DNA of 64,000 nucleotides from an uncultured Chloroflexia bacterium (GTDB lineage Bacteria; Chloroflexota; Limnocylindria; Limnocylindrales; CSP1-4): NCBI GenBank assembly GCA_963828165.1, contig CAWHDR010000001.1, positions 2,272,001-2,336,000 of the forward strand, read 5' to 3'. Made by a program: the position numbers and the translations under genes. Position 1 is the stretch's first letter. Every line of letters begins with the position of its first letter. The notes beneath the pieces are model-generated. The model worked only from the letters and a program-made list of their open reading frames with translations. It did not search any database and was not told where the DNA came from. This document shows, in pieces, positions 58,068 to 58,508 of this stretch.

Positions 58068-58508
58068 ATGAACTACGAGCTCTTCATGGGCGAGGCACTG
58101 GCGGAGGCGGAGCTCGCCATCGAGCGCGGTGAGCGGCCGATCGCCGCCGTCGCCGTCGTCGATGAGGCCATGGTGGCCAGGGCTCACGACCGAGTCGAAT
58201 CGACGAACGACCCGACCGCCCACGCGGTCGTCGTCGCCCTGCGCGAAGCCGCCCGCCGCCTGGGCCGTGGCCGCCTTGCGGACGCCACGATCTTCACGAC
58301 CCATGAGCCGTGCGCGATGTGTGTCGGGGCCCTCCTGGCCAGTGACGTCGAGGCGCTCGTCTTCGCATTCGAGGACACCAGAGAGGGCGCAGCGGGCACG
58401 GTCCTGCAGCTGGCGCAGCACCCGGGTCTGCCGCGACGAATCAAGGTCGTGAGCGGGATCCGGCGCGACGAAGCCGAAGCGCTGCTCGCCGGAGCGCCGA
58501 CCGCCTGA
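58068..58508 (+). CDS. TadA-like nucleoside deaminase lacking the catalytic glutamate
   Basis: FMGEALAEA, GERPIAAV, NDPTAHAVVVALREA, EPCAMCVGA, GAAGT, SGI. Confidence 0.85.
   Translation: MNYELFMGEALAEAELAIERGERPIAAVAVVDEAMVARAHDRVESTNDPTAHAVVVALREAARRLGRGRLADATIFTTHEPCAMCVGALLASDVEALVFAFEDTREGAAGTVLQLAQHPGLPRRIKVVSGIRRDEAEALLAGAPTA

Follow-up and report, generated by a model that had tools for sequence, protein, structure and literature searches.

A conserved TadA homologue without the catalytic glutamate in Limnocylindria that use tRNA-Arg(GCG)

Why would a bacterium keep an intact gene for a relative of the tRNA adenosine deaminase TadA in which the catalytic glutamate is gone? The question is raised by an open reading frame (ORF) of 146 codons at 58068..58508 (+) of a stretch of 64,000 nucleotides, here called the window, that belongs to contig CAWHDR010000001.1 (positions 2,272,001 to 2,336,000) of assembly GCA_963828165.1, from an uncultured member of the Limnocylindrales in the phylum Chloroflexota. 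The source genome comprises 3.31 Mb with 69.6% G+C and is 87.7% complete, and related public contigs of Ca. Limnocylindria/Limnocylindrales stem from metagenome-assembled genomes (MAGs) of soil and freshwater. TadA serves as the scaffold of adenine base editors and is, to our knowledge, near-universal and essential in bacteria. An earlier note on this DNA had proposed that the protein is a conserved pseudoenzyme, and we likewise consider it probable that the gene encodes a pseudo-deaminase that derives from tadA and is conserved in a role other than editing. This reading is supported by the loss of the glutamate throughout a clade, by the ratio of nonsynonymous to synonymous substitution (dN/dS), by the co-occurrence with tRNA-Arg(GCG) and by a genome in which no A34 tRNA was found.

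Motif, fixation and selection

In the chemistry of the CDA family, the glutamate of the HxE motif is the proton shuttle needed in deamination. The protein under study, whose translation contains NDPTAHAVVVALRE and further on HEPCAMCVGA, has the CDA fold with valine in that place: the codons CAC GCG GTC at 58221..58229 (+) specify the zinc ligand His52, Ala53 and Val54. The zinc ligands Cys82 and Cys85 are retained in a PCAMC motif at 58308..58322 (+). The earlier note had read HAV instead of HAE, with the His and PCxxC ligands kept in a full-length ORF, and each of these observations holds. We infer that a protein without the glutamate cannot deaminate, and that it should still fold and bind zinc.

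The assignment to TadA follows from several comparisons. The protein matches the Pfam families PF14437 (E 1.1e-25) and PF00383 (E 1.1e-21), and it scores 119.9 bits with the NCBIfam TadA equivalog NF008113, under the model cut-off of 150; scores in the Glu-less clade as a whole range from 87 to 128 bits. The solved structures that match best are all TadA, with E. coli 1Z3A at 100.7 bits, followed lower down by guanine deaminase (68.2 bits) and mouse ADAT3 (44.6 bits). The alignment to E. coli TadA structures is gap-free over query residues 2-141, so that E. coli numbering equals query plus 5 and His52, Val54, Cys82 and Cys85 correspond to His57, Glu59, Cys87 and Cys90. S. aureus numbering equals query plus 1, by our own arithmetic from residue correspondences in the excerpts of PMC8216470.

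To follow the motif through the class, we used a sample of 121 genomes in five families: the family of the window (f1, 36 genomes), a sister family of small genomes (f2, 5), an ACG-using, Glu-bearing family (f3, 39), a second Glu-less family (f4, 40) and f5 (1). The Glu-bearing f3 set behind the motif counts, dN/dS, column comparison and tree includes G102, G126, G139 and G145, which are flagged as unpublished; the class counts of tRNAs and TilS include G102, G122, G126, G131, G139 and G145, and the phylum counts G188 and G298, with the same flag. No conclusion rests on unpublished-flagged genomes alone. Within the genus, the gene is present in 21 of 24 other genomes at 75-96% identity, and all copies read DPTAHAV. 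The motif was read in 70 further loci of the class sample. Other f1 genera contribute 20 of them (19 HAV, 1 HAI) and f4 another 20 (18 HAV, 2 HAL), and the 30 loci with higher TadA scores are all HAE (28 in f3, one in f5 and one second copy in an f4 genome).

At position 54, the 59 Glu-less orthologues have Val in 56, Leu in two and Ile in one, and all 45 active relatives have Glu. Since every orthologue that was read carries an aliphatic residue there, Val54 is genuine and not a sequencing error. The codons in the Glu-less set are GTG (28), GTC (27), GTT (1), CTG (2) and ATC (1), with synonymous turnover between GTG, GTC and GTT across the clade, and the glutamate of the relatives is encoded by GAG (42) or GAA (3). 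A maximum-likelihood tree calculated from 92 sequences has a single branch, with a length of 0.53+0.57 changes per column and an SH-aLRT of 100, between 47 Glu-less and 45 Glu-bearing rows. The tree points to a loss of the glutamate that would have arisen once and been followed by slow change.

The Glu-less gene is under purifying selection as strong as that on active TadA. By the Nei-Gojobori method, the median dN/dS of sequence pairs is 0.144 within the genus (165 of 171 pairs, those with dS 0.05-1.5), 0.256 in f1 and 0.237 in f4, compared with 0.343 in the Glu-bearing relatives. The ratios of 0.14-0.26 are no higher than in active TadA (0.34) and contradict the neutral decay that the earlier note had set as the counter-case. 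Moreover, the extracted ORFs are intact in 59 of 59 sequences from the two families, with lengths of 142-170 aa. One genus orthologue outside this set (G007, C3:4525-4903) is split over two frames, by either a real frameshift or an indel error in the long-read assembly.

Two side observations concern the distribution of the motif. The f4 genome G088 holds a Glu-less copy and a Glu-bearing copy (C60:1472-1915 and C56:3824-4225), and the Glu-bearing one has the top TadA score of the class, 184.5 bits. We do not count it as proof that the two forms coexist: in the tree, this copy falls among TadA proteins from other Chloroflexota classes and not with this class, and contamination or horizontal transfer appears the more likely source. 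Apart from this, three proteins that are 44-48% identical to the query also are without Glu: P0168 has HAV and a longer TadA-like C-terminus, P0217 has HPI, and P0255 has HAA with the first Cys changed to Thr. Judged by their sequences, they may represent dead TadA lineages that branched off earlier or arose independently.

tRNA complement in the class and the phylum

If the protein does not edit, is there anything left to edit? ARAGORN makes 56 calls with 47 anticodon types over the whole genome, and in this 87.7%-complete assembly no anticodon starts with A and no tRNA-Arg(ACG) was found. The genuine Arg tRNAs have the anticodons UCU, CCU, GCG, UCG and CCG. Two calls labelled 'Arg', 95-97 nt in length, were discounted for poor structure and the absence of CCA. 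The tRNA-Arg(GCG) is encoded in the window at 54056..54131 (+), with a canonical cloverleaf and an encoded CCA, next to its conserved neighbour tRNA-Ser(GCT) at 53941..54032 (+). It takes over the role of tRNA-Arg(ICG) in decoding CGU and CGC. With no tRNA-Arg(ACG) and only GCG, UCG and CCG, there is therefore no known substrate of wobble A-to-I editing, in line with the earlier suggestion that the protein has been freed from editing.

The same association recurs throughout the class. A pattern for D-arm and anticodon arm of tRNA-Arg(RCG) matched 32 of 36 genomes in f1, 5 of 5 in f2 and 38 of 40 in f4, always with GCG only. In f3 it matched 34 of 39 genomes, of which 31 have ACG only, two GCG only (G044, G089) and one both (G137, 76% complete). 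His-Ala-Glu thus goes with ACG and His-Ala-Val with GCG, which is the co-occurrence of Glu-less orthologues with tRNA-Arg(GCG) and of Glu-bearing ones with tRNA-Arg(ACG) that the earlier note had proposed to look for. The two f3 genomes with GCG only have no strong TadA match. The tRNA-Arg(UCG) was found in 32 of 36 genomes of f1, 4 of 5 of f2, 36 of 40 of f4 and 22 of 39 of f3, in the last often adjoining the ACG gene. The presence of UCG beside ACG in f3 agrees with the scheme put forward for Mollicutes: first the gain of UCG, then the mutation of ACG to GCG (excerpts of PMC3711424).

A second TadA that could take over editing was sought with NF008113, PF00383, PF14437 and tblastn using four TadA queries, and at 87.7% genome completeness these searches yielded neither a second TadA, of the HAE type or otherwise, nor a further protein with PF00383 or PF14437. 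A weak tblastn match (G000 C1:1715142-1715333) was rejected as a low-complexity wrong-frame artefact. At this completeness, PF00383 has its sole match in this protein, and the genome yielded no deaminase domain of the RibD, cytidine, dCMP or guanine type.

The situation in the phylum was surveyed in 201 Chloroflexota genomes with a completeness of 85% or more. Most have tRNA-Arg(GCG); among the matches listed, ACG occurs only in the families f9, f19, f26 and f28, plus an extra copy in G164 and G259. TadA-model scores of at least 147 bits are confined to these four families (8/8, 3/4, 1/1 and 3/3 genomes, respectively), and all 15 of these strong TadA proteins are HAE. Scores of 99-128 bits, the range of the Glu-less form, occur in 7 of 8 f1 and 13 of 13 f4 genomes. 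The remaining families give no TadA-model match at E <=1e-15, or 59-88 bits, mostly over part of the model. These weaker matches were considered as further relics and rejected, as 14 of 14 fetched ones are HxE paralogues; they look guanine- or cytosine-deaminase-type and are 27-43% identical to the query, most over part of it. I34 is dispensed with in most of the phylum, and tadA there is normally lost. Retention is the exception, and in the 201-genome sample the retained Glu-less form is seen only in Limnocylindria f1 and f4.

Bacteria that use GCG in place of ACG have been described before. In Mollicutes, tadA is reported lost (Yokobori et al. 2013, excerpts of PMC3711424); GCG-using Thermotogae and Spirochaetes are named in the excerpts of PMC8007984, and GCG use in CPR and 'some deeply branching bacteria' in those of PMC8629427. 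Like these lineages, in so far as the excerpts describe them, the Limnocylindria use tRNA-Arg(GCG) and (UCG), with CCG in addition, and no I34. They differ from them, for which loss of tadA is reported, in that the gene is kept in a Glu-less form, and as free-living organisms with GC-rich genomes of 2-4 Mb they are unlike reduced parasites. The listings and excerpts returned by our literature search contain no statement on Chloroflexota among the lineages with the GCG trait, and no description of a Glu-less or retained dead bacterial TadA.

Two further features of the tRNA complement stand beside these results. In some f4 genomes, tRNA-Arg(UCG) is found in 4-9 near-identical copies (G072 C2:292927-297776, G082 C7:369264-388184, G054 C4:346211-358231, and several contigs of G150), for the most part of these genomes about 0.9-6 kb apart on one contig, which could be tandem arrays or the result of repeated integration at a tRNA gene. 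The other feature concerns the decoding of AUA. A canonical tRNA-Ile(UAU) lies outside the window (G000 C1:910674-910751), the genome has just two tRNA(CAU) genes, and the TilS model TIGR02432 finds no match in it, with 14 of 14 controls positive. In the class sample, TilS is present in 0 of 36 genomes of f1, 0 of 5 of f2, 38 of 39 of f3, 39 of 40 of f4 and 1 of 1 of f5. A pattern for a tRNA with the UAU anticodon, strict enough to set a lower bound only, matched 18 of 36 f1 genomes and none in f2-f5. TilS-less bacteria with tRNA-Ile(UAU) are known, e.g. Mycoplasma mobile (excerpts of PMC3575796); here, gene content suggests that AUA is read without lysidine in what is apparently an entire order of free-living organisms.

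Protein surface, locus and promoter

What else changed in the protein can be read from a column comparison of 59 Glu-less with 45 Glu-bearing sequences. Kept in both sets are M7, A10, A14, P24, A27, D48, T50, A51, H52, A53, L70, T78, E80, P81, C82, M84, C85, G87, A88, V98, G107 and A108, which preserves the TadA motifs DPTAHA, EPCxMC and G-A-x-G; C82 and C85 do not vary in either set (59 of 59 and 45 of 45 sequences). The differences concern positions that are nearly fixed in the active proteins. At query position 41, Asn (45/45) is replaced by Asp in 47 of the Glu-less sequences, with Glu in three, Asn in three and other residues in six, among them Arg in three f4 sequences. Glu44 and Trp68 (each 45/45) become variable, as does the Phe-Phe pair at 143/144 (44 and 45 of 45). 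Arg93 (45/45) changes to Asp in 35 sequences, Lys105 (42/45) to Arg in 25 and otherwise to variable residues, Asn122 (42/45) to Pro in 38, and His123 (45/45) to Arg in 37 with His left in 20. The tail past position 141 has a median of 6 residues compared with 12 in the Glu-bearing set. The protein is also more acidic, with a median net charge of -5 to -6 and a pI of about 5.1-5.4, compared with -1 and 6.4 in the active relatives.

Alongside these losses, the Glu-less clade has gained constraints of its own. Tyr76Phe and Ala86Val are fixed switches, and N2-Y3-E4-L5, E13, A29, A34-M35, T74, A109-G110, Q114-L115-A116 and S129-G130 are conserved only here; in all, about 25 residues are newly invariant in the clade.

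Structural work on TadA gives these positions a meaning. The catalytic residue of S. aureus TadA is Glu55; A34 is hydrogen-bonded by Asn42 and the backbone of Ala54, and the 32-38 pair is read by Lys106 and Asn123 (excerpts of PMC8216470). The C-terminal helix, described in the excerpts of the same paper as essential in anticodon stem-loop binding, has a conserved Glu and Phe (also excerpts of PMC3239186). By alignment, the contacts lost in the Glu-less protein are the equivalents of Asn42, Asn123, the adjacent His and the C-terminal Phe-Phe helix. The earlier note had suggested a possible new use of the protein in RNA binding or as a scaffold. Canonical binding of the anticodon loop looks unlikely from the sequences, because most residues with which TadA holds the loop have changed and the charge is acidic.

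Modelling suggests that the quaternary structure may have been kept. A two-copy model reaches an ipSAE of 0.85, with 0.00 for the best of three controls, 100% agreement of contacts between runs and a pLDDT of 92-93. In a calibration of the homodimer score, 20 of 30 proteins with a solved same-chain pair reached the mark, compared with 1 of 23 whose solved structure is a single chain. The model supports a TadA-like homodimer, with the qualification that the pass may reflect likeness alone, TadA homodimers being solved. The modelled interface takes in the clade-specific residues Val86, Leu115 and Pro122.

The setting of the gene connects it to tadA independently of the motif. In the window, it is followed by tRNA-Ser(CGA) at 58696..58781 (+), a conserved downstream neighbour and marker of the ancestral tadA locus. 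The order TadA-like gene, tRNA-Ser(CGA), tRNA-Ser(GGA), dnaX is present at 14 of 14 Glu-less loci (12 f4, 2 f1). Near Glu-bearing tadA of other Chloroflexota classes, tRNA-Ser(CGA) lies less than 1.5 kb away in 8 of 15 loci. In f3 it is found 1.1-3.4 kb downstream of tadA in 4 of 4 genomes with both genes located, and it is not within 1.5 kb of tadA in 14 loci. As this synteny is common to Glu-less and Glu-bearing genes, the window gene is the positional orthologue of tadA. The small genomes of f2 (1.0-1.4 Mb) have no TadA homologue (0/16 and 0/5 genomes in two samples), and their slot between a dehydrogenase gene and tRNA-Ser(CGA) is filled by an unrelated ORF of 129 aa. Similarly, nothing TadA-like lies within 7.3 kb upstream of tRNA-Ser(CGA) in the f3 genome G044.

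Further downstream in the window follow tRNA-Ser(GGA) at 58984..59071 (+), a gene of the metallo-beta-lactamase fold listed between it and the signal recognition particle (SRP) RNA, and the SRP RNA itself (ffs, Bacteria_large_SRP, 173.2 bits) at 59832..60096 (+), which starts 1.3 kb past the end of the TadA-like ORF. Next come dnaX at 60150..61955 (+), with an approximate start (the listed ORF begins at 59940, overlapping the SRP RNA), ybaB/ebfC at 62030..62335 (+), recR at 62343..62960 (+) and the beginning of a 16S rRNA gene. The mapped genes agree with the earlier placement of the ORF about 1.3 kb upstream of ffs-dnaX-ybaB-recR. The divergent upstream neighbour is a phosphofructokinase gene at 56797..57981 (-).

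The start of the gene is marked by TGCTAGCAT, an extended -10-like box at 58053..58061 (+), 6 nt before the ATG. All 19 of 19 sequences from the genus carry it unchanged, at a distance of 5-7 nt from the start codon; most other f1 genera have TATCAT or TATGAT at the same place. In f4 the place is taken by TGCTAGACT or by a GGAGG-like element, in which case the box lies further upstream. There is no Shine-Dalgarno sequence at the start of the gene (58053-58070 in the window). A box so near the start suggests that the mRNA may be leaderless or near-leaderless in f1. The extended -10 element of the earlier note is therefore present and conserved, but a generic sigma-70 promoter and terminator scan of 57900-58750 finds no full -35/-10 promoter, nor anything else. 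A search of public RNA runs gave small shares only (0.06-0.13). In four RNA runs, the contigs come from relatives that are 90-95% alike, depth is concentrated on the tRNA-Ser genes and the gene is partly uncovered. In one RNA library, a contig (X3 record 20) links 58202-58265 with tRNA-Ser(CGA), although DNA carry-over is possible and contigs cannot show transcription. The contigs that cover codon 54 (X1 record 4, X3 record 20) have no alternative letter there.

Weighing the readings

Could the protein still be an enzyme? It might act on another substrate, be it a base, a nucleoside, a nucleotide or an RNA position, with another acid/base or with zinc-bound water alone. The invariant zinc ligands and pocket core (DPTAHA, EPCxMC) would fit such an activity, as would the many new invariant residues, which suggest a specific site, and the Asp that replaces Asn at position 41, near the base-binding position, in 47 of 59 sequences. 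We nevertheless regard this as improbable and know of no CDA-fold enzyme without the Glu that is active. The glutamate is invariant in 45 of 45 active relatives and in 14 of 14 fetched paralogues, position 54 is always aliphatic and never polar in the Glu-less set, and ADAT3 with Val is inactive according to the excerpts of PMC7713142 and PMC8216470. Asp41 as a compensating acid was rejected, since the position is not conserved (three Glu, three Asn, six other residues). Alternatively, the protein might pair with an active deaminase as its non-catalytic partner, in a bacterial ADAT2/ADAT3 heterodimer. Its valine and other changes mirror ADAT3, and some genus relatives have other genes of the HxE deaminase fold (L023, L027, L029-L031). 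In the genome of the window, by contrast, no other PF00383/PF14437 protein or TadA-model match was found as a partner and no A34 tRNA to edit, the symmetric homodimer is modelled with confidence, and an ADAT3-like N-terminal domain is absent; we consider a heterodimer decidedly unlikely.

The two remaining explanations question the conservation and the ancestry of the gene. That it is no tadA orthologue at all, and instead a guanine- or cytosine-deaminase-like paralogue without Glu, could be read from its score under the TadA cut-off (119.9 vs 150 bits) and from the NCBI label of the orthologues, which is 'nucleoside deaminase' only. This is highly improbable in view of the solved relatives, among which TadA is best (100.7 bits for E. 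coli 1z3a vs 68.2 bits for guanine deaminase, gap-free over 140 residues), the tRNA-Ser(CGA) synteny held in common with Glu-bearing tadA, and the TadA-specific motifs DPTAHA, EPCxMC and G-A-x-G; true paralogues in the phylum have only 27-43% identity, most over part of the query. A recently disabled gene that drifts towards loss, intact by chance, is barely conceivable: the dN/dS of 0.14-0.26 at a dS of about 0.8, the 59 of 59 intact ORFs in two families, the conserved promoter box and the new invariant residues are all at odds with it, even though tadA is lost in f2 and most of the phylum, the G007 copy is split and 4 of 35 f1 genomes have no match.

Several observations weigh against a conserved pseudo-deaminase, or limit it. 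Its inactivity rests on family chemistry and the ADAT3 precedent. Some contacts are partly retained (position 103 is Asp or Asn, and 105 is Arg in 25 of 59), and the protein might therefore still bind nucleic acid to some extent. Three f3 genomes are exceptions, probably through incompleteness or mixed bins: in G070 (89% complete) and G132 (79% complete) ACG is present although no strong TadA match was found, and in G137 ACG and GCG occur together. In the genome of the window itself, at 87.7% completeness, a tRNA-Arg(ACG) or a second tadA could be missed, which the pattern in about 80 relatives makes unlikely. The gene tree is unrooted and compatible with GCG first as well as with Val first, with f3 keeping or regaining ACG and TadA. 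Finally, no match to the gene was found in 4 of 35 f1 genomes that are 90-97% complete, nor in the whole family f2, so that its function is not essential. Because the sister family f2 lost the gene, the role would be dispensable in streamlined genomes, and together with its absence from the four f1 genomes this loss indicates a role that is useful but non-essential.

A conserved pseudo-deaminase can be placed between two known systems. With bacterial TadA (E. coli 1Z3A, S. aureus 2B3J) it has in common the fold, size and zinc ligands, a gap-free alignment at about 40-45% identity, the locus beside tRNA-Ser(CGA) and a similar modelled homodimer. It differs in the Val for Glu, the lost equivalents of Asn42 and Asn123 and of the Phe-Phe helix, its acidity, its score below the NCBIfam cut-off and a genome in which no tRNA-Arg(ACG) was found. 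The other system is eukaryotic ADAT3 (Tad3), to which the earlier note had compared the motif. Yeast ADAT3 has Val218 where the Glu stood and a preserved zinc site (excerpts of PMC7713142), and the excerpts of PMC8216470 describe for ADAT3 a shorter C-terminal helix, a negative surface above the zinc pocket and no loop pockets. As far as these sources go, the likeness extends beyond the motif: both proteins derive from TadA and are under selection, both combine Glu to Val with a kept zinc site, a shortened C-terminal helix and lost anticodon-loop pockets, and the acidity of the bacterial protein resembles the negative pocket surface of ADAT3. The Limnocylindria protein differs in that it has no N-terminal tRNA-binding domain (146 aa, with the deaminase domain at 2-141), no ADAT2-like partner found in the genome and no A34 tRNA to serve. 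The resemblance is one of convergence and not orthology, because the match to mouse ADAT3 is 44.6 bits compared with about 100 to bacterial TadA.

How might such a protein have come about? With tRNA-Arg(UCG) in place beforehand, a change of the ACG anticodon to GCG in the other tRNA-Arg would have left editing without a purpose, and the gene would then have been lost in most Chloroflexota. In the lineage studied here, a second, non-catalytic activity may have kept it under selection while its surface was remodelled. The proton shuttle and most substrate contacts would have gone in one burst, after which the protein stayed nearly constant with new invariant residues. The activity that was kept would probably consist in binding some partner, be it nucleic acid, nucleotide or protein, with the remodelled face around zinc pocket and dimer contact as the binding surface. 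In a more far-reaching version, which we put forward tentatively and think rather unlikely to hold as a whole, the protein would be a stand-alone analogue of ADAT3: a dead TadA homodimer co-opted as a binding module that depends on zinc and acts in regulation or as a chaperone, within a wider rewiring of wobble decoding in Limnocylindrales that includes the loss of TilS for tRNA-Ile(UAU). Candidate ligands of such a module are tRNA, other RNA, a nucleotide or a protein.

There are practical consequences for annotation. Relatives of the protein are named 'tRNA(adenine34) deaminase' in public databases, which would be an error, and inferences that assume I34 would be wrong for Limnocylindria and probably for other Chloroflexota too. 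Beyond this, the family would provide a natural, clade-wide case in which the substrate of TadA is gone and the protein survives dead, remodelled and strongly constrained, and would show the fate under selection of an essential editing enzyme after editing becomes unnecessary. It would amount to an independent bacterial replay of the transition from TadA to ADAT3 and implies a testable non-catalytic function of the TadA fold. If the more far-reaching version is true, the fold has a second function that is independent of editing, perhaps hidden in ordinary TadA too.

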